Sequence record: PP658200.1
Source of the DNA: Escherichia phage HY126
Strand: one strand, 5' to 3'
DNA: 64,000 bases
In this document: positions 5,037-16,623 of the stretch, one piece after another
How positions within the stretch are numbered: the stretch's first letter is position 1
Layout: each line of letters begins with the position of its first letter
Notes under the pieces: generated by a model
What the model was told of the DNA's origin: nothing
The model's database searches: none
What the model saw: the letters and a program-made list of their open reading frames with translations, nothing else
Program-made: the position numbers and the translations under genes

Positions 5037-5285
5037 TTATTCTTTTTCGCGAATAATAATTACTTGTTGAGGCTGCTGGGCAGATTTCTTTTCGGCAACG
5101 ATAGACCAAATTAAAGTTCCAATCCAACCAATCATCGTCCAGTTAAAAAGTAAAGATACAAAGAAGATTGCTGTTGTGCTTTTTGTGCCACGAATAAGTG
5201 CGATTACCCAAGGCAACATGTAAATGATGATTGAACCAATACCTGCGATTAAAACCGCTACTGAACTAGCTACGAATAATTCCAT
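5037..5285 (-). CDS. small inner-membrane protein (2 TM), possibly Imm-like
   Basis: 82 aa, two hydrophobic helices (…IRGTKSTTAIFFVSLLFNWTMIGWIGTLIW…); neighbour of sp; Imm-like assignment is only a guess. Confidence 0.6.
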   Translation of the reverse strand: MELFVASSVAVLIAGIGSIIIYMLPWVIALIRGTKSTTAIFFVSLLFNWTMIGWIGTLIWSIVAEKKSAQQPQQVIIIREKE

Positions 5286-5346
5286 GTTAATTTCCTCTTG
5301 ATTTGTTATGTTTATAATATCTTATTTTAACTTTGGTGTAAACCAA

Positions 5347-5715
5347 TTAGTTAAATTTGTTTAAACGTTCAATACACTGGACGTAGTTATTCGCGATTTG
5401 TTTCTGGGTAGGCTCATTACCAGTTGTTTCAACATAGCGAATGAATGCGATTTCAGTAGCCTGTAGACAATGTTCTTTAACGCGTTGTTCTTTTGACAAT
5501 GCTACAGTATCAGAGTCACGATAACGTTGAGCATGGGCATCAGCTTGAATCATTCGATTACCTACAGTAACCGGGTCTTCCACTTCAACTTTAGGTTGTT
5601 CATACTGTTTAACATTCGGATTGTAAATCAGTTGGCCGACGTTATTAGGAATAAAGCCATGGGCACCACATCCTGTTAATCCAAATACCATTGCTAAAGC
5701 GATTAATTTTTTCAT
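5347..5715 (-). CDS. predicted lipoprotein (122 aa)
   Basis: Signal peptide with lipobox LTGC (MKKLIALAMVFGLTGC). Confidence 0.7.
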   Translation of the reverse strand: MKKLIALAMVFGLTGCGAHGFIPNNVGQLIYNPNVKQYEQPKVEVEDPVTVGNRMIQADAHAQRYRDSDTVALSKEQRVKEHCLQATEIAFIRYVETTGNEPTQKQIANNYVQCIERLNKFN

Positions 5716-10071: not shown

Positions 10072-10620
10072 TTAACGAGCCCATTTGATAATTTCTGTAA
10101 TCAAATTATTACGTTCGCTTGCATTAAATCCTATAACTTTGTTAGCACCATCATGATTAAGTAATTGATACGTTTGGATTTCGTTATGAATTGCAAACTC
10201 TTCAAAATATGAAATGACTGTATTAAAACCGAACGAAGACAAAGTAATAAGGTCGTCTTCAAAACTTTCAGTCATTTCGTTACGTGTTAAAATAATTGTG
10301 AACACATCATGGTTTTGGCAAAGACGAACATAATCCTGTTCATAAACGTCAAGAACCGAGTCCGCATCTTGTCGAATACGTCCATAAACCCAGTTACTAA
10401 TATATCCACGGTCTAACAGATAAATCTTAGTAGGGTCTAAATAATTCAACATCGTTTCGAAACAGCCAACTTCATTTCGAGACTTAACATCGAAACGTCC
10501 ATCAACTGTTCGTTTAGGGAAATCAATCTTTACATATCTTTCACTAATTTCCATTATGTCATTAATGAAAGTTGTTTTACCAGCATTATCCGGGCCATCT
10601 ACTAAAATAATTTTAGCCAT
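10072..10620 (-). CDS. P-loop nucleoside/nucleotide kinase-like protein
   Basis: 182 aa; Walker A VDGPDNAGKTT and LLDRGYISNWVYG (DRxY lid-like) suggest dNK/dTMP-kinase fold; not present at this position in T4. Confidence 0.7.
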   Translation of the reverse strand: MAKIILVDGPDNAGKTTFINDIMEISERYVKIDFPKRTVDGRFDVKSRNEVGCFETMLNYLDPTKIYLLDRGYISNWVYGRIRQDADSVLDVYEQDYVRLCQNHDVFTIILTRNEMTESFEDDLITLSSFGFNTVISYFEEFAIHNEIQTYQLLNHDGANKVIGFNASERNNLITEIIKWAR

Positions 10621-10621
10621 T

Positions 10622-11521
10622 TTATTCCTCGATTACGACATCTTCATATTTAGGTATATTATACGGCGAAGAAATTAAAGCATTAAAGTAGATGAACTCG
10701 CCAAGACCTGGATGGAATACTTCTTCAGGATTTTCGAAATATTGAATCTTCGGACGTCCTTTAAGAATTTGATAGTACTCAGTTTTAGTTGGTTTAAAAA
10801 TTCGAATCAACGCTTCTTCAGGATACTTATTTCTGTCGAAGCTATTATTTGGATCGGTTATATAAAGCGGTTGGCCTAATTGAATTGCACATTCAACCAC
10901 TTGTTCAAAACGATAGCACGGGTCACTAATTCGAAATGGATGAAAAATACCATCTAGATGAATAGGAGCCAAATCACCTACAAGACGCTGCATGATGGAA
11001 GGACGTATAACTTTCTGCGTTACGATAATCTTATTACCATCTGCACCTGCGTTAACCAGCACTTCTTTTTGACGTTCATTCAACACAGTAGTTTGAAGTG
11101 AACGATTAACCGACAACATATCAGTTTTTAAGAATTCGTCAATATAAAAACGTGGTTTATTAGGGTCTGCAGTGATATTGAAATTGAATTCCACATCAAA
11201 AGTGCCGGCATATCCGGTGATATCTGTGATTAGAAAATCACAATCATAATAAGCAATTAATGAATCAACCACAAATTCATTTTCAGACCAGAAATATTTA
11301 CGAGTGTTATACGCGTTATCTTTATACCATAATGGAACAAACTTAAATTCTGGAAAAAGACGTTCGCATTCTTTAATATCAGATGCATTACGTGGATATG
11401 TAATCACATCACCCGGATTAGCACGGTGCAAATGAAGTTGGAAGTTGCCATCCTTAAGGATAGCATACTGTCCAGTTTCATAAGACCGCATACTCAAGAT
11501 AGGTACGCGGAAAATAGCCAT
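10622..11521 (-). CDS. hypothetical protein in the beta-glucosyltransferase syntenic position
   Basis: 299 aa between uvsX and 42, where T4 carries beta-gt; no resemblance to T4 beta-gt noticed; ATGA-coupled to gene 42. Confidence 0.65.
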   Translation of the reverse strand: MAIFRVPILSMRSYETGQYAILKDGNFQLHLHRANPGDVITYPRNASDIKECERLFPEFKFVPLWYKDNAYNTRKYFWSENEFVVDSLIAYYDCDFLITDITGYAGTFDVEFNFNITADPNKPRFYIDEFLKTDMLSVNRSLQTTVLNERQKEVLVNAGADGNKIIVTQKVIRPSIMQRLVGDLAPIHLDGIFHPFRISDPCYRFEQVVECAIQLGQPLYITDPNNSFDRNKYPEEALIRIFKPTKTEYYQILKGRPKIQYFENPEEVFHPGLGEFIYFNALISSPYNIPKYEDVVIEE

Positions 11522-12237
11522 TAGTCAAGGAATCCTTTAACATAATCAAAATCACGTTCAAACACATGGGCACTTACCATGGTATGAGTATAATCACCAA
11601 CTTCTACACCACATTCGTTAGCGATATAATGAAGTAATTTTCCTTGGAGATAAAAATCCAACTGCATAACAACAGCACAGTTCTGAGAACGCATATGACA
11701 GTGGGTATAAAGCTTACCATCACGAATATAATAAGTCACTGAGTCAGTACATGGATATTCAAGCGTTTCGTCTGAATCAAGCAAAGCCTGATCGGAACTT
11801 TCTAGAATTTGGAACACAACTCTTCGGGAGTTAGGCTTCTCTTTAAGTTCTTTTAGAAGAGCTGGTAATTGGGCCGCAATGCGAGGACCATAGAAAGTGT
11901 TGAAGTTTGCAGGCAAAGCGTCTGATTTAGGTTTAGAAATAAATTTAGCGACGTTAGGATATGCCTTAAATGCTTCTTTTGCATCAGTACCACCAGAAAT
12001 CATAAATTTCCAGAAATCTTCAGCATATTCATAAGAGATGCGATTAATACGTGGGTCGGTCATTTTGAATGATGAAGGGGTATCAACAACTACTGTCATA
12101 GACCCAATTTCATTACAACGTCCAATACGAGAATCAGTAACGAACTGTGGATTTTCTAAAATTTCACGATTGACAGCTTTAAATGCGGATTGAAAATCTG
12201 CGGCTTTAATATATTTCATTGTGTTATGTTTTCCCAT
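11521..12237 (-). CDS. 42: dCMP hydroxymethylase gp42 (thymidylate-synthase fold)
   Basis: 238 aa; TS-family core (…RRVVFQIL…PCTDSVTYYIRDGKL…MRSQN…QLDFY…); synteny with T4 gene 42. Confidence 0.85.
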   Translation of the reverse strand: MGKHNTMKYIKAADFQSAFKAVNREILENPQFVTDSRIGRCNEIGSMTVVVDTPSSFKMTDPRINRISYEYAEDFWKFMISGGTDAKEAFKAYPNVAKFISKPKSDALPANFNTFYGPRIAAQLPALLKELKEKPNSRRVVFQILESSDQALLDSDETLEYPCTDSVTYYIRDGKLYTHCHMRSQNCAVVMQLDFYLQGKLLHYIANECGVEVGDYTHTMVSAHVFERDFDYVKGFLD

Positions 12238-12255: not shown

Positions 12256-12281
12256 ATTATATACTCAATTCATAAAGCTTA
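12256..12281 (-). promoter_or_regulatory. possible middle-type promoter for gene 42
   Basis: Minus strand TAAGCTTTA (MotA-box-like, one mismatch) - 11 nt - TATAAT; SD GAGGT follows. Confidence 0.35.
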
Positions 12282-12420
12282 TTTGAATTTCTTAGCGATG
12301 TTGATATAACGTAAAGCTTCAGCATCGATACTTCCAAGAACACTATGAAGAAATGCATCAGCATAGTATTCTAGTTGAACAGGTTTCTTTAATCACTTTA
12401 AGCCGCTTTGGTTTCAAACA

Positions 12421-12439
12421 GGCCCATAAGGGCCTTTTT
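12421..12439 (+). terminator. plus-strand intrinsic terminator in the 42 / U32 intergenic gap
   Basis: GGCCC-AUAA-GGGCC hairpin followed by U5 on plus strand; on minus strand the A-run precedes the hairpin. Confidence 0.5.
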
Positions 12440-12516
12440 AAGAATTTGTTCGTTGCTGTTAATTTTCATAGTCAAAATCTCTTCATTAAGTTGGTGGTTA
12501 AAAGTTTTTCTAGAAA

Positions 12517-13677
12517 TCATTCTGGGTACCTCAAAGCGTCGTCAGAGTTAGTTATATCAATAATAGATATAGAGTTTTCTGATAACCCATTTTTAGATAA
12601 TTGACGTTTATAATATCTTTCACAATATGTACACGTCGTCCCACAGATTTCATTAGCACAATCGAAATCTGGATGTCTGAACCACCTTTTTTCTAAAAAG
12701 CCATCTAACAAAGAGGTTTCAATATTTACCGTATGTGAAAACTCGGTCTCATTTTCAAGAGTGAAAATGGTCTCTAAAGGCTTCCACAATTCCAACAAAT
12801 TACCTTCAAATTTTTCGGAAGCATAAGCTTCAAGAACTTTCAAAATGTAGTCTGTGCTACCTGTACGTCCTGAAACTTTGAATTGAGTGATACCAATATC
12901 ATTATAAAGTTTCAAATCTTGAGGACGAACAAAACGAGTTCTCAACCAGTTAAATGGATCTGTATCACGAGCTTTAATGCAGTGTTGCATTGGATATCCA
13001 TTTAAGGATTTAGCATCATCAGCGGTAACATCAGTACTATGGAAAATATAGCAAGAGTCACGATAGCTACAATGTGTTGTATACCCTTTACCAGCATTAG
13101 AACAGAACTCATTTACAAGAACTTCAAATATTATATTGTTCTTATTGCAAAACTCTGCTGCACGCTTCAGGAAAGAAACCGAACGGTTCTTATGAATTCC
13201 ACAGCAGACCTTTTTGATATTATACTGGTCATGCAAGTATTTGATTTGAGTTACAGCATCGACATGTAGAATTGTTGAAACTTCAATCTCAATGTCTTTA
13301 TTGACTTCACGAACAATTTCCATAACAACAGGGTTAGCGATAGTAATACGCCATACGCCTATTGACCAAAGATACTGAACATAATCCTGAATAGCTTTCT
13401 TCTTCCACTCAACTAGTTCTCTTTTTGAACCAGGATTTATCGTGTTGAGTGTATAGTTAAAGCAAATACCTAATTCGTTACAACGTTTAACGTAATCTTC
13501 TAACATCTTTTTGTCAACGTCAGGAAGCCTAAAATCAGGTCTGGCTGCTACAAAAGCCATTTCTCTTGTAGAGCCGTATACTTCATTTATCAAGCTATTA
13601 GGATAAGTTTTATTGAGCTCTACGATTTTATCAAGAAGAGCTAAATCAAAATTCGTTCCGATTTTAAAAGTATTCAT
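12517..13677 (-). CDS. peptidase-U32-family-like protein (TIM-barrel, Cys-rich; possible Fe-S enzyme)
   Basis: 386 aa; N-terminal …EVYGSTREMAFVAAR… and …EVLVNEFCSNAG…C… resemble U32 signature regions; many C-terminal Cys; assignment from motif memory only. Confidence 0.65.
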   Translation of the reverse strand: MNTFKIGTNFDLALLDKIVELNKTYPNSLINEVYGSTREMAFVAARPDFRLPDVDKKMLEDYVKRCNELGICFNYTLNTINPGSKRELVEWKKKAIQDYVQYLWSIGVWRITIANPVVMEIVREVNKDIEIEVSTILHVDAVTQIKYLHDQYNIKKVCCGIHKNRSVSFLKRAAEFCNKNNIIFEVLVNEFCSNAGKGYTTHCSYRDSCYIFHSTDVTADDAKSLNGYPMQHCIKARDTDPFNWLRTRFVRPQDLKLYNDIGITQFKVSGRTGSTDYILKVLEAYASEKFEGNLLELWKPLETIFTLENETEFSHTVNIETSLLDGFLEKRWFRHPDFDCANEICGTTCTYCERYYKRQLSKNGLSENSISIIDITNSDDALRYPE

Positions 13678-13731
13678 TTTTACATCTCGCGTTAATTGAT
13701 GCGATGGTTTTTGCAGGTCTTACTTAAATTA

Positions 13732-14133
13732 TTATAGATTCGGTTTATATGATTTAAATGTTTCGAATTCGCCTTTATTCATAAGAGCTTTGAATTCGTC
13801 AGGACGCATAGCTTTGTCGTCGATAATCCAATCATATACTGGTTTATGTGTTAGCAAATTATGGTACTTCAAGCCAATGTTTGCCAAGTTCTGAATCAGA
13901 CTTGGGAGAATGTCAATTGCTATACGACCAGGACCTACTGACTTCATACCGCGAGCAGTGTAAAGCGTTATTGTATGCCCTGCATCATACAGGGCATTAA
14001 TGGCAGACACCATTTCGACGTCTGGTTTGAAGTTCACGTAATCACGATTGTTATTCCACTCGGTTATACAATCATCGACATCAAAACAAAGATTAAGCAT
14101 GTTTTCTACACGGTGCATTAGATTCGTTCCCAT
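13732..14133 (-). CDS. HAD-superfamily phosphatase (minimal, capless)
   Basis: 133 aa; motif I FDVDDCIT, conserved T (TLYTARG), K, and motif IV IIDDKA. Confidence 0.65.
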   Translation of the reverse strand: MGTNLMHRVENMLNLCFDVDDCITEWNNNRDYVNFKPDVEMVSAINALYDAGHTITLYTARGMKSVGPGRIAIDILPSLIQNLANIGLKYHNLLTHKPVYDWIIDDKAMRPDEFKALMNKGEFETFKSYKPNL

Positions 14134-15806
14134 TGATGAGTGATATCGCCACCGATTGGACGATAGGAAACACCAGTTTCTTTATCAGTTAGTACCCATT
14201 TACCAGGATTTTTTGTAATCAGAGTAGCCGTTACAGGTTCTGCTACGTCATAACTAATAGAGCCGTCCTGAAGTACACGGCCCATGTTACGTAATTGCTT
14301 AGTCAGAAGTTCCATACCTTTATAATATGCGGCTACCGCTTTAAGTGGATTATTCTTGAAATAACCACCTAATGCAATCCAGATAATTGCCACTGCCAAA
14401 TGATGATACTCGTTAAACGAACTCATCTTTCCATATTTGTAAACTAATGGATTGATGTTAATAGACACATTACAAGTTGTTTCATCAATAGTAAACTGTC
14501 CCCAAGTCGGATTAGCGTTGAATTCATCATAACCTGAAACAGCGTAAAGCACTTTAGCTTCATCATACAATTTTGGCCCATAAATCTTGGTTTCACCAAA
14601 ATATCCACGAGGGTCGATAAACTTGACTTCACAATTATCAGTAATCATAGTATTACTGAAGTTCGGGTCGCCATGAATAACAGAGTACTGTCCCTGAGAA
14701 CGGTTATGATAACGAATAAGGTGTTCTAAAGCTTGTTTCAACATTGGCTTCAGACGCCCAATCTTAGTGTAGTTCACATGTGTTATTTTACCAAATGAAT
14801 CAATCAATGGTTGAATACTTTCACAACGATCAATAACTTTAGTATAGAATTCTTTAGTGAAATCACGACGAACAGTTTCAGGACTTACAAAATAAGTGTC
14901 TGTGCTGAATTTCAGTGCATCTAAAATTGCATCAACAATTTGTGGACGAGCAAGACTTGATTTGGATTTAATATATTCAAATGCTGGCTTACCTTTAATA
15001 CGTTCCATAATAAAGTGGCCGCCAGGATGATAACTTACAATCCGTGGAACTGAATCTGATTTAACTTTCTTATACCAATTGACTTCATCTTTTTGAAGTG
15101 CAACGCCCTGTTCTGTTAAAGCAATCTTTGTTACCGTTTCTTCGCCAATTTCAACTGCATTAAAACTACGATTAAGTTCACGAACTTCATGAGCTTTTTC
15201 AAGTTTAGGCATATCACCAAGGTCGATGATATTCATAAGCTCTGATTTATTGAATGCGCTGCCGTAAAGGAATTCTACGAAATCACGTCCTTTGCAGTAT
15301 TCATGAATTTCCTCATCAGTAGAACCCATATAGAATTCCCAGTCTTTGAACTGATAAATTCCTACAACATTACCACCTGTTGAACCTACATTAGTGATAT
15401 TTTCACCGTCGAAATTATATCGACATTCGTCACCCTTAACATAGATTGCGTTAACATTCCAAGACCACGAACCAAAATCAGGAATAATATCACACCAGTT
15501 AACAATTACATTATGGCCGTCTAAATCTTTGTGCAATTTAGCAAGAGCATAAGCAGAACCATACGCTTCATCAACTGTACGAATAGTCACATTGAACCCT
15601 TCTTGCTCACAATAAGCTCGAACAGTTTCAGCAAATTTTGAATGAACTACTACAATAATTTCATCTGCGCCAAGGTCAGAATAAATTGTATACAAATTGC
15701 TCAGAATAGTGTCTTGTTTATAGTTAACAAGCACCTTAGGAATATGATGCGTTATTGGATACAAACGAGTTGCCAGTCCAGCACCAAGAATAACAGCTTT
15801 TTTCAT
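14118..15806 (-). CDS. bifunctional sugar-1-phosphate nucleotidyltransferase / APH-like sugar kinase
   Basis: 562 aa; N-terminus ILGAGLATRLYPIT..PKVLV (NDP-sugar pyrophosphorylase signature); C-terminus HGDPNFSN…FIDPRG (aminoglycoside/choline-kinase-like catalytic loop). Confidence 0.75.
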   Translation of the reverse strand: MKKAVILGAGLATRLYPITHHIPKVLVNYKQDTILSNLYTIYSDLGADEIIVVVHSKFAETVRAYCEQEGFNVTIRTVDEAYGSAYALAKLHKDLDGHNVIVNWCDIIPDFGSWSWNVNAIYVKGDECRYNFDGENITNVGSTGGNVVGIYQFKDWEFYMGSTDEEIHEYCKGRDFVEFLYGSAFNKSELMNIIDLGDMPKLEKAHEVRELNRSFNAVEIGEETVTKIALTEQGVALQKDEVNWYKKVKSDSVPRIVSYHPGGHFIMERIKGKPAFEYIKSKSSLARPQIVDAILDALKFSTDTYFVSPETVRRDFTKEFYTKVIDRCESIQPLIDSFGKITHVNYTKIGRLKPMLKQALEHLIRYHNRSQGQYSVIHGDPNFSNTMITDNCEVKFIDPRGYFGETKIYGPKLYDEAKVLYAVSGYDEFNANPTWGQFTIDETTCNVSININPLVYKYGKMSSFNEYHHLAVAIIWIALGGYFKNNPLKAVAAYYKGMELLTKQLRNMGRVLQDGSISYDVAEPVTATLITKNPGKWVLTDKETGVSYRPIGGDITHQWERI

Positions 15807-15847
15807 GTTGTGGTCCTCATTGGTAAGTAGGAGTATTGTACACTATT

Positions 15848-15991
15848 CTAGTTAAAGCATTCATACTTTGCTTGTAGTCCAATCATAATCCATCCGATTA
15901 TAAGAGTCGGAATCATTACTGGAGCCGTTAAGCTCCAGTAGATAGTCATGACAAGCATCAATAGTAAAAGTCCTATTGTTATTGCTTTCAT
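15848..15991 (-). CDS. small hydrophobic membrane protein (47 aa, below track cutoff)
   Basis: Translated by eye (MKAITIGLLLLMLVMTIYWSLTAPVMIPTLIIGWIMIGLQAKYECFN); ATGA overlap with stop of SIS isomerase gene. Confidence 0.35.
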   Translation of the reverse strand: MKAITIGLLLLMLVMTIYWSLTAPVMIPTLIIGWIMIGLQAKYECFN

Positions 15992-16623
15992 TGTTCGCCT
16001 CGTAACATGGCACCTAGTGCACCGCCAGGGTGGAACTTAAGGAAGTCATTAGAGGTAAATCCACGTTCAGACGAAAGGTTGATAGCAAACGTATCGATAA
16101 GCGCTAACAACAATGTAGTGGACATAGTCGGAGCCAGAGAATTCTCATCAACCTCTACTGCGATGCCTGTACAGAACGTATAATCAAAAAGAGCTTCGTA
16201 TTCTTGTGGAATGTCCGGGTTACAATGCAACAGAATCTGTTTGACGTTCGGACGAATCATTTTAAGATGCTTAGCCACGCCTATCATTTCTTCAGTTTTA
16301 CCAGAACGACTAATATGAATCAACACATCATTAGGCGCAATGAATCCTGCATCACCGTGAGAATAATGCCCAGTGTTCAAGTACATACTCGGGATACCGA
16401 GTGAAGCAAATGTCTCAGAAGCTTTAGTTGCAATATTAGCATTCTTACCAACACCTGTAATAATTACTCGGCTTTCATAATTACTAAGTCCTGGGCGTCG
16501 AAGAGTTTCTAGAATAGCATTATAACGAGCAGGGTTTTGACTAATTACTTTGGCCATAGCGGCCAAAGAAGAAGCTTGTTTTATGATTGCGTCAATAGCG
16601 ATAGTAATAGGAGTAGTTTTCAT
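15988..16623 (-). CDS. SIS-domain sugar-phosphate isomerase, KdsD/GutQ-like (arabinose-5-phosphate isomerase)
   Basis: 211 aa; GVGKNANIATKASETFASLGIPS, ISRSGKTEE, LAPTMSTT and FHPGGALG match the SIS domain of A5P isomerases; no CBS domains. Confidence 0.8.
   Translation of the reverse strand: MKTTPITIAIDAIIKQASSLAAMAKVISQNPARYNAILETLRRPGLSNYESRVIITGVGKNANIATKASETFASLGIPSMYLNTGHYSHGDAGFIAPNDVLIHISRSGKTEEMIGVAKHLKMIRPNVKQILLHCNPDIPQEYEALFDYTFCTGIAVEVDENSLAPTMSTTLLLALIDTFAINLSSERGFTSNDFLKFHPGGALGAMLRGEQ

Follow-up and report, generated by a model that had tools for sequence, protein, structure and literature searches.

The U32-family protein in the arabinosyl-5-hydroxycytosine gene cluster of Escherichia phage HY126, a candidate oxygen-independent pyrimidine hydroxylase

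Why should a phage that makes its own activated arabinose carry, among the genes for doing so, one for a U32-family protein? The question is raised by Escherichia phage HY126 (sequence record PP658200.1), of which we analyzed one stretch of 64,000 nucleotides, referred to here as the window. Between gene 43, the DNA polymerase gene, and the position of T4 gene 42, the window has a cassette that encodes an SIS-type isomerase, a micro open reading frame (micro-ORF), a nucleotidyltransferase-kinase fusion, a HAD phosphatase and the U32 protein. An earlier reading made from the sequence alone (the sequence-only reading) had proposed that the cassette makes an activated arabinose donor and had left the role of the U32 protein blank. 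The answer given here has two parts. First, the gene 43 to uvsX region is the published arabinosyl-5-hydroxycytosine modification cluster, of which the flagged cassette forms the sugar-donor half. Second, our analysis suggests that the U32 protein may be an iron-sulfur (Fe-S), prephenate-dependent and O2-independent C5 hydroxylase of a pyrimidine deoxynucleotide, a reading to which we assign a probability of about 0.5. As an overall explanation, a known cluster of the Afh type plus a lead in its U32 gene, the two parts together are very probably correct.

The sugar part of the answer comes from the literature. Thomas 2018 had flagged the gene module (PMC6024577), and Lee 2026 (Nucleic Acids Research, NAR) cites Mahler 2025 (Cell Host Microbe) and He 2026 (Nat Chem Biol) for the pathway (PMC13326640). 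RB69 DNA contains mono- and di-arabinosylated 5-hydroxycytosine, not hydroxymethylcytosine (Lee 2026, PMC13326640). The base named in the sequence-only reading, arabinosyl-hydroxymethylcytosine, must therefore be replaced by arabinosyl-5-hydroxycytosine, in which an ether link joins the sugar to C5; it is shown for RB69 and cited for HY126 in the same paper. Three sets of RB69 proteins, gp55, gp52:53 and gp51, are assigned to NDP-arabinofuranose synthesis, and gp55, the SIS protein, is assigned the conversion of ribulose-5-phosphate to arabinose-5-phosphate (PMC13326640). For HY126 itself, He 2026 as cited in PMC13326640 has AfhE converting arabinose-5-phosphate to arabinose-1,5-bisphosphate, AfhF stripping the 5-phosphate to leave arabinose-1-phosphate and the N-terminal domain of AfhE converting the latter to UDP-arabinofuranose.

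The published order, again by that citation, is isomerase, kinase, HAD phosphatase and uridylyltransferase. Since the kinase precedes the phosphatase, free arabinose is not an intermediate, and the proposal that the phosphatase acts first, by way of free arabinose, is contradicted. The isomerase, the kinase/pyrophosphorylase fusion and the HAD protein agree with the roles in PMC13326640, and so the proposal of an arabinose donor stands apart from its step order. The statement that the pathway had not been worked out is overtaken, because its steps were reconstituted for HY126 by He 2026, according to PMC13326640. As first flagged, the role of the cassette was essentially right on function, outdated in detail and already known.

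In the window, the SIS isomerase would convert host ribulose-5-phosphate to arabinose-5-phosphate, the C-terminal kinase domain of the fusion would make arabinose-1,5-bisphosphate, the HAD phosphatase would reduce this to arabinose-1-phosphate and the N-terminal nucleotidyltransferase domain of the fusion would produce UDP-arabinofuranose; all four steps are established in the literature for near-identical proteins. On the base side, the ThyA homolog at the gene 42 position would hydroxylate dCMP at C5 with flavin and O2, kinases would raise 5-hydroxy-dCMP to the triphosphate for incorporation by the polymerase, and glycosyltransferases would arabinosylate the 5-hydroxyl on the DNA after incorporation.

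The U32 Protein and Its Relatives in Escherichia coli

Since the published route reaches UDP-arabinofuranose with no step left for the U32 protein, we do not consider the latter to be part of sugar activation. Its family label, which was all that the sequence-only reading had given it, is upheld in three ways. The protein matches Pfam PF01136, Peptidase_U32 (7e-11, 42.2 bits against a cut-off of 22.4). An AlphaFold2 model built on a 26-sequence alignment has a pLDDT of 90.3, and its best fold match in the PDB is 5d88, the U32 protein Mk0906, with a TM score of 0.73 on the target. Finally, a profile-profile comparison (hhalign) of the phage family with TrhP, RlhA, UbiU and UbiV gives a probability of 95% and an E value of 3e-8.

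These four E. coli proteins are the best guide to function. RlhA is required for 5-hydroxycytidine in 23S rRNA (ho5C2501) and TrhP for 5-hydroxyuridine in tRNA (ho5U34), both of them depend on prephenate, and the essential residues of the U32 motif in TrhP/RlhA are E162, C170 and C177, E162 being essential in TrhP (PMC5727448, PMC6599085). RlhA needs Fe-S cluster biogenesis, the U32-motif cysteines and its C-terminal cysteines, while the TrhP-dependent modification is not affected when cells grow anaerobically, and TrhP has an O2-dependent counterpart, TrhO (PMC5727448, PMC6599085). The other two members, UbiU and UbiV, serve anaerobic ubiquinone synthesis.

The phage protein shares with all four the Pfam family and the TIM-barrel fold, and it may share a conserved Glu and Cys. 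Eleven residues are invariant among the 26 sequences of the phage family, namely E185 and ten cysteines: C158, C177, C192, C203, C209, C233 and the group C340-x4-C345-x3-C349-x2-C352. Of these, E185 and C192 line up with one Glu and one Cys that none of the four E. coli proteins lacks, the partner of E185 in TrhP being E162. C203 and C209 align with the U32-motif cysteines in hhalign, with the reservation that two alignments disagree on which cysteines correspond. The C-terminal cysteine cluster recalls that of RlhA. In relatives, the gene is linked to prephenate supply (see below), and like RlhA and TrhP the phage protein would carry out C5 hydroxylation of a pyrimidine. Unlike them, it is very divergent, has other cysteine spacing and has no DUF3656, and its proposed substrate would be a deoxynucleotide, whereas the four E. 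coli proteins act on RNA or quinones.

Many records annotate the U32 protein as a peptidase or collagenase. It could accordingly be a collagenase-like peptidase with no connection to DNA modification, carried as a passenger in a plastic region, and T4-like phages are indeed known for frequent gain and loss of genes in the interval from gene 43 to uvsX (PMC6024577). However, the four E. coli members are annotated or shown as hydroxylation factors (PMC5727448, PMC6599085). Furthermore, many unrelated viral contigs have the U32 gene within a block of nucleotide and DNA-modification genes, to which its translation is coupled, and it is conserved more strongly than its neighbors: across genera the U32 proteins are 81-89% identical, whereas AfhE in the same genera is 43-73% identical. 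A passenger peptidase is highly improbable on this evidence.

Neighbors and Distribution of the U32 Gene

The company that the U32 gene keeps in other phages is the second line of evidence. In Serratia phage LC53 and Enterobacter phage Entb_45, it is followed by a chorismate mutase gene, with an overlap of four nucleotides, and then by the gene for the ThyA homolog. Chorismate mutase was detected in 56 phage records, as compared with 68 records outside Mosigvirus that have U32, and at all eight loci that were read (LC53, Entb_45 and six others) it adjoins U32 or sits one or two small ORFs downstream. The pair has been kept together in Shewanella phage Thanatos-1, though it has moved off the ThyA homolog. 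These phage chorismate mutases pass the Pfam CM_2 threshold and have invariant Arg, Lys, Glu, Ser and Gln residues, which are presumably the catalytic residues of the E. coli enzyme. The order in Thanatos-1 (locus L014, 1-3240) is ThyA homolog, glycosyltransferase, kinase, U32 and chorismate mutase, and the enterobacterial phages have a different order. The study of Thanatos-1 reported a pentose on cytosine and did not discuss the U32 and chorismate mutase genes (PMC12838424).

The presence or absence of U32 also displays a pattern. The host genera listed for the 221 U32-bearing records all belong to the Enterobacterales or are Shewanella. Acinetobacter is not among them, though 57 Acinetobacter records carry AfhE, and in the cluster of Acinetobacter phage Maestro the phosphatase gene leads directly to that of the ThyA homolog, without U32. 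Acinetobacter is a strict aerobe. A strict rule by which phages of facultatively anaerobic hosts always have U32 was considered and dropped; it is broken by the E. coli Dhakavirus WG01, and the correlation runs in one direction only.

U32 homologs with 45-58% identity are common in metagenomes. A scan of IMG/VR gave 47 loci, of which 15 are Straboviridae-like and 32 are not, and their neighborhoods (10 kb on each side) were censused with hidden Markov models made from the cluster proteins. Some of the contigs are near-duplicates, and so the counts overstate their independence. The full cluster is present at the 15 Straboviridae-like loci. Among the 32 others, chorismate mutase directly follows U32 in six (one copy passes Pfam CM_2 at 9e-15) and a DAHP synthase gene adjoins U32 in five. 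The 299-residue glycosyltransferase family is found in 15, often directly upstream of U32, and AfhE in 16, with SIS in nine; Tmk-like kinase, dCMP deaminase and dUTPase/DCD genes occur in five to six contigs each. Only one of the 32 has a ThyA-family gene within 10 kb of U32. At six further U32 loci the neighbors are nucleotide-metabolism and glycosyltransferase genes (in L021 they include a TET-associated glycosyltransferase, TAGT, and UDP-galactopyranose mutase), and the thymidylate synthase family is absent from the precomputed Pfam tables of these loci.

DAHP synthase is the first enzyme of the shikimate pathway and is unusual as an auxiliary metabolic gene for a virus. The version beside U32 is short (248 residues) and was seen directly next to it in L039 (9384-10130) and L020 (8145-8891), as well as in L051, L052, L054 and L055. 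We considered whether these DAHP_synth_1 neighbors were instead KDO8P synthases, which would have tied them to arabinose-5-phosphate; they score as DAHP synthases (2.6e-70 and 237 bits, against 3e-17 and 63 bits for KDO8P synthase).

Three arrangements deserve description in their own right. In L021 (4777-13179), the order is a glycosyltransferase with a DXD motif, a Tmk-like kinase, a glycosyltransferase of the RB69 gp46:47 type, U32, TAGT and dUTPase/DCD, with UDP-galactopyranose mutase further on and no ThyA or TET homolog seen within the contig stretch; this gene set suggests a different glycosylated-hydroxypyrimidine system, with U32 at its core. L062 (9962-14008) has U32, chorismate mutase, a 399-residue protein and a shorter (490 residues) AfhE-like nucleotidyltransferase-kinase fusion, an order that also occurs in L057, L059, L063, L065 and L071. 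These are contigs of jumbo-phage size (190-295 kb), and neither an SIS isomerase nor a ThyA homolog was found within 10 kb of their U32 genes. Finally, L007 (8001-15428; L008 is the same) is a bacterial-looking contig, with a dockerin-bearing GH43, MarR and glutamate-cysteine ligase, in which the neighbors of the U32 homolog are a 5'(3')-deoxyribonucleotidase, a PnuC-like transporter, a deoxynucleoside kinase, a radical SAM/SPASM protein, a second, distant U32 paralog (22% identity) and a nucleoside deoxyribosyltransferase.

Some of this context could be read as placing the U32 protein on the sugar side, as a reductase or other enzyme of UDP-arabinose synthesis or remodelling. Its gene lies between those of the phosphatase and the hydroxylase, Table 1 of Lee 2026 lists it as a 'sugar or heterocycle reductase' (PMC13326640), the record of phage ChristianSchoenbein (BASEL) calls it a 'putative enzyme involved in UDP-arabinose biosynthesis', and SIS and AfhE genes often accompany it in the viral contigs. 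However, the route from arabinose-5-phosphate to UDP-arabinofuranose has no gap for it to fill (PMC13326640). Maestro carries arabinosylated 5-hydroxy-dC (PMC13326640) and yet has no U32 gene, and the homologous cluster of WG01 is without one too. None of the characterized U32 proteins is known to be a sugar reductase, neighbors such as chorismate mutase and DAHP synthase would have no obvious part in pentose activation, and six contigs (L042, L046, L047, L053, L056 and L067) have U32 with a glycosyltransferase and a kinase and have no SIS or AfhE gene. We therefore consider a sugar-side role unlikely.

Another possibility is that the protein is an O2-independent hydroxylase with a different role during infection, either in host ubiquinone synthesis, as for UbiU/UbiV, or in the modification of host tRNA or rRNA, as for TrhP and RlhA. 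The only NCBIfam match of the phage protein is a weak one to UbiU (8.9e-4), the precedents in the family are quinone and RNA substrates, and prephenate-pathway neighbors would suit any U32 hydroxylase. Against this, the partners of the gene are the 5-hydroxycytosine glycosyltransferase family, the Tmk-like kinase, dCMP deaminase, dUTPase/DCD and the arabinose genes, and no quinone or RNA-modification genes are among the neighbor families found. In addition, the phage protein is without the DUF3656 and C-terminal domains of RlhA/TrhP and has no UbiT or UbiV partner, and the host already encodes all four enzymes. We regard a quinone or RNA substrate as quite improbable.

The reading that we prefer is, as stated at the outset, a C5 hydroxylase of a pyrimidine deoxynucleotide. 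A dedicated nucleotide kinase recurs beside U32, and this suggests that the U32 protein would act at the mononucleotide level. It may make the same 5-hydroxypyrimidine nucleotide as the ThyA homolog when oxygen is lacking, as in the gut, and the phage would then have two routes to hydroxylation, one of them O2-dependent, much as E. coli has TrhO and TrhP. The chorismate mutase or DAHP synthase of some phages would feed the U32 protein with prephenate. In the uncultivated phages without a nearby ThyA homolog, the U32 protein could be all that supplies the hydroxyl group on which the DNA is glycosylated. Tentatively, and as something that we would put forward rather than assert, U32 may found a widespread viral subfamily of prephenate-dependent, O2-independent enzymes that hydroxylate pyrimidine precursors of DNA at C5; in RB69-like phages it would be the anaerobic counterpart of the ThyA-like enzyme.

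Several observations weigh against a deoxynucleotide hydroxylase. In pairwise BLAST, neither TrhP nor RlhA matches the U32 protein significantly, and a sequence search of the PDB has no match even at an E value of 1; the tie to TrhP/RlhA is by profile and fold methods only. The cysteine spacing differs from the canonical GxLC-x6-C motif, and those family members known to hydroxylate pyrimidines do so in polymeric RNA and not in mononucleotides. The published label of Lee 2026 quoted above is a different one, given there as tentative (PMC13326640). In E. coli Dhakaviruses such as WG01 the cluster has no U32 gene, from which it follows that U32 is dispensable, at least in air. No chorismate mutase was found anywhere in the window by tblastn and profile comparison; the Mosigviruses, the window included, carry an unrelated 79-residue gene where others have chorismate mutase. 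Finally, the ThyA homologs of the viral contigs could sit beyond the 10 kb examined.

As to novelty, a literature search that did not extend to He 2026 and Mahler 2025 found no paper tying a phage U32 protein to hydroxylation. That the hydroxylase reading is both true and unpublished is possible, but we would call it somewhat doubtful.

Layout of the Cluster and Its Other Genes

The window belongs to an RB69-like Mosigvirus. The cassette neighborhood, a 7-kb stretch, matches 155 phage records with 95-99% DNA identity in a nucleotide search, and the gene order is that of RB69 gp45 to gp55 (Table 1). The ORF at 19375-16664 we take to be the RB69 gene 43 DNA polymerase. All five co-oriented ORFs of the sequence-only reading are present on the minus strand. 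Its view that the block is translationally coupled fits three junctions, where genes overlap (SIS/micro-ORF by 4 nucleotides, fusion/HAD by 16 and U32/next ORF by 4), and does not fit the two with gaps, of 41 nucleotides before the fusion gene and 54 before the U32 gene. In a scan of the sequence, promoter and terminator sites were no more numerous than in shuffled sequence.

Table 1. Genes of the arabinosyl-5-hydroxycytosine cluster in the window
Feature	Position	Strand	Length or remark
SIS protein, RB69 gp55 equivalent	15988..16623	-	211 aa
Micro-ORF, RB69 gp54 equivalent	15848..15991	-	47 aa
Nucleotidyltransferase-kinase fusion, AfhE-type	14118..15806	-	562 aa
HAD protein, AfhF-type, RB69 gp51 equivalent	13732..14133	-	133 aa
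U32 protein, RB69 gp50 equivalent	12517..13677	-	386 aa
Broken RB69 gp49 homolog	12279..12520	-	40-aa ORF + out-of-frame tail
ThyA-homolog 5-hydroxy-dCMP synthase, T4 gene 42 position	11521..12237	-	100% identical to PDB 9iqc/9ir2
DNA arabinosyltransferase candidate, RB69 gp46:47 equivalent, T4 beta-gt position	10622..11521	-	299 aa
Thymidylate-kinase-like P-loop nucleotide kinase, RB69 gp45 equivalent	10072..10620	-	phrog_761

Profile searches bear out the family assignments proposed earlier for the SIS, nucleotidyltransferase-kinase, HAD and U32 ORFs. The SIS protein matches Pfam SIS (1.7e-10), KpsF/GutQ TIGR00393 (2e-32), KdsD NF008141 (1e-30) and phrog_5670, 'arabinose 5-phosphate isomerase' (2e-116), and in the PDB it matches 3etn (5.5e-25) and 2xhz (6.5e-19). 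Its residues 48-207 align to positions 47-202 of the KdsD model, which has 328 positions, and the scores fall well short of the equivalog cut-offs. The architecture of KdsD/GutQ is SIS with tandem CBS domains, and the phage protein matches the SIS part only. It is best described, as far as its sequence can tell, as an SIS-only arabinose-5-phosphate isomerase that is KdsD-like in function, is not a full-length KdsD member and resembles 3etn.

The fusion protein matches NTP_transferase (9.6e-10) on residues 3-99 and, weakly, the EcKL kinases on residues 309-397, and it has many NCBIfam sugar-1-phosphate nucleotidyltransferase matches and a match to phrog_4098 at 1e-293. The motifs GAGLATRL (the GxGxR of nucleotidyltransferases) and HGDPNFSN (the HxDxxxxN kinase loop) are both present. 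The predicted halves are a sugar-1-phosphate uridylyltransferase at the N terminus and an APH/choline-kinase-like domain at the C terminus. The gene is unbroken in the window, as is the glycosyltransferase gene, whereas the RB69 reference record splits both. Thomas 2018 reported that ORF053c and ORF052c of RB69 are a single gene of 561 residues (PMC6024577), and the split of the fusion gene in the reference record is a sequencing error. The HAD protein matches the capsule biosynthesis phosphatase model TIGR01689 (4e-13) and, in the PDB, 9iqw (7.8e-88 over residues 5-133) and 1xpj (5e-10).

The micro-ORF, to judge from its homologs, is a conserved gene and not noise. It matches phrog_3610 over its full length (4.5e-27), a homolog with 62% identity in Serratia phage LC53 is annotated as transmembrane, another is present in Enterobacter phage Entb_45, and the 4-nucleotide start/stop overlap with the SIS gene recurs in the Serratia and Enterobacter phages. 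Two stretches of the protein are hydrophobic and its C-terminal K-x-E/N-C-F-N is strictly conserved, and the gene keeps its place between the isomerase and fusion genes in three genera. The RB69 record annotates it only as a truncated version of 36 residues.

The flank that had been called gene 42 is a flavin- and O2-dependent 5-hydroxy-dCMP synthase and not a dCMP hydroxymethylase. The protein is identical over 238 residues to the solved structures in Table 1, matches Thymidylat_synt (2e-15) and is 25% identical to T4 gp42; it has RSQN where gp42 has RSND, which is the D169N change described as the signature of 5-hydroxy-dCMP synthases (PMC13326640). Its RB69 counterpart, gp48, binds flavin and makes 5-hydroxy-dCMP with oxygen derived from 18O2 (PMC13326640).

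It had also been said that no alpha-gt or beta-gt homolog is present at the T4 positions. By sequence this holds: tblastn of T4 alpha-gt and beta-gt against the whole window gave nothing significant (the best was alpha-gt, E 0.029 over 69 residues). However, a glycosyltransferase of another family fills the beta-gt position. This candidate matches phrog_3891 (6e-156) and is syntenic with RB69p046/047; it has no Pfam match and no similarity to T4 beta-gt (BLASTP E 3.6). RB69 gp46:47 is assigned as 'arabinosyltransferase 1', with a GT-B-like fold, and the second transferase of the cluster is RB69 gp3 (PMC13326640), the equivalent of which falls outside the window. The nucleotide kinase ORF matches phrog_761, 'thymidylate kinase' (5e-45), and has the P-loop GPDNAGKTT; the RB69 gp45 equivalent is listed as a nucleotide kinase (PMC13326640).

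The gene next to U32 is a broken copy of RB69 gp49, in a region that is 96.5% identical in DNA to RB69, the sole stretch that was compared directly with that phage. Relative to RB69, in which gp49 has 79 residues, there are two single-base insertions 15 nucleotides apart, with a TAA stop after codon 40 and the frame then restored. The 40-residue ORF aligns to positions 1-40 of the 79-position phrog_8601, and most related phages retain the 79-residue form. The interruption could be a real pseudogene or paired homopolymer sequencing errors. This is the slot that holds chorismate mutase in other genera, and we considered whether gp49 or the broken copy is a diverged chorismate mutase; there is no Pfam match at E values up to 1, hhalign gives 0.1% and tblastn finds no similarity.

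T4 carries only imm.1 and imm between genes 43 and 42, in agreement with the sequence-only reading, which gave it only imm and small ORFs there. In the window, homologs of imm (65% identity to T4) and imm.1 (32%) lie at 5040-5709 and not between genes 43 and 42. The immunity genes were relocated, not lost, when the arabinose cassette took this slot.

How does the cluster compare with known systems? The Afh clusters of RB69, HY126, Bas46/47, Serratia LC53 and Acinetobacter DLP3/Maestro have the same proposed chemistry as the window. As in those clusters, the SIS isomerase, AfhE-type fusion and AfhF-type HAD protein occur together, and a transferase of the gp46:47 type stands beside the hydroxylase. 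The hydroxylase is identical and the phosphatase nearly identical to the solved structures, and the sugar-donor genes are essentially without difference; what sets the window apart is the broken gp49 homolog and, relative to the RB69 record, its whole fusion and glycosyltransferase genes. The Kdo pathway of E. coli (KdsD/GutQ, KdsC and KdsB) shares the first step, from ribulose-5-phosphate to arabinose-5-phosphate by an SIS isomerase, and a HAD phosphatase and a nucleotidyltransferase take part in both. The phage system differs in its SIS-only isomerase, in having no KDO8P synthase step and in making UDP-arabinofuranose by way of a 1,5-bisphosphate, whereas the product in E. coli is CMP-Kdo. 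The glucosylation system of T4 (gp42, alpha-gt and beta-gt) occupies the same genomic positions, and in both dCMP is modified by a ThyA homolog ahead of replication, with sugar added to the DNA by a glycosyltransferase afterwards. However, the hydroxylase of the phage adds OH and T4 gp42 adds CH2OH, and the donor is phage-made UDP-arabinofuranose as opposed to host UDP-glucose.

Oxygen, Prephenate and Phage DNA

The role of the cassette in making UDP-arabinofuranose is already published and two proteins of the cluster have solved structures, and so the remaining value of the locus is the lead provided by its U32 protein. The only known phage route to 5-hydroxycytosine needs O2, yet the gut bacteria that serve as hosts here often live in its absence. 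Should the U32 protein prove to be a hydroxylase that works without O2, it would account for a modification that is kept up anaerobically, and prephenate-dependent U32 chemistry would reach beyond RNA and quinones to the precursors of DNA. There would also be a reason why some phages carry shikimate-pathway genes, and U32 would become a marker for glycosylated-hydroxypyrimidine DNA in uncultivated phages that have no ThyA homolog. For phage therapy the point is a practical one, as it is the modification of its DNA that determines how sensitive a phage is to restriction, CRISPR and glycosylase defenses in the oxygen-poor gut.

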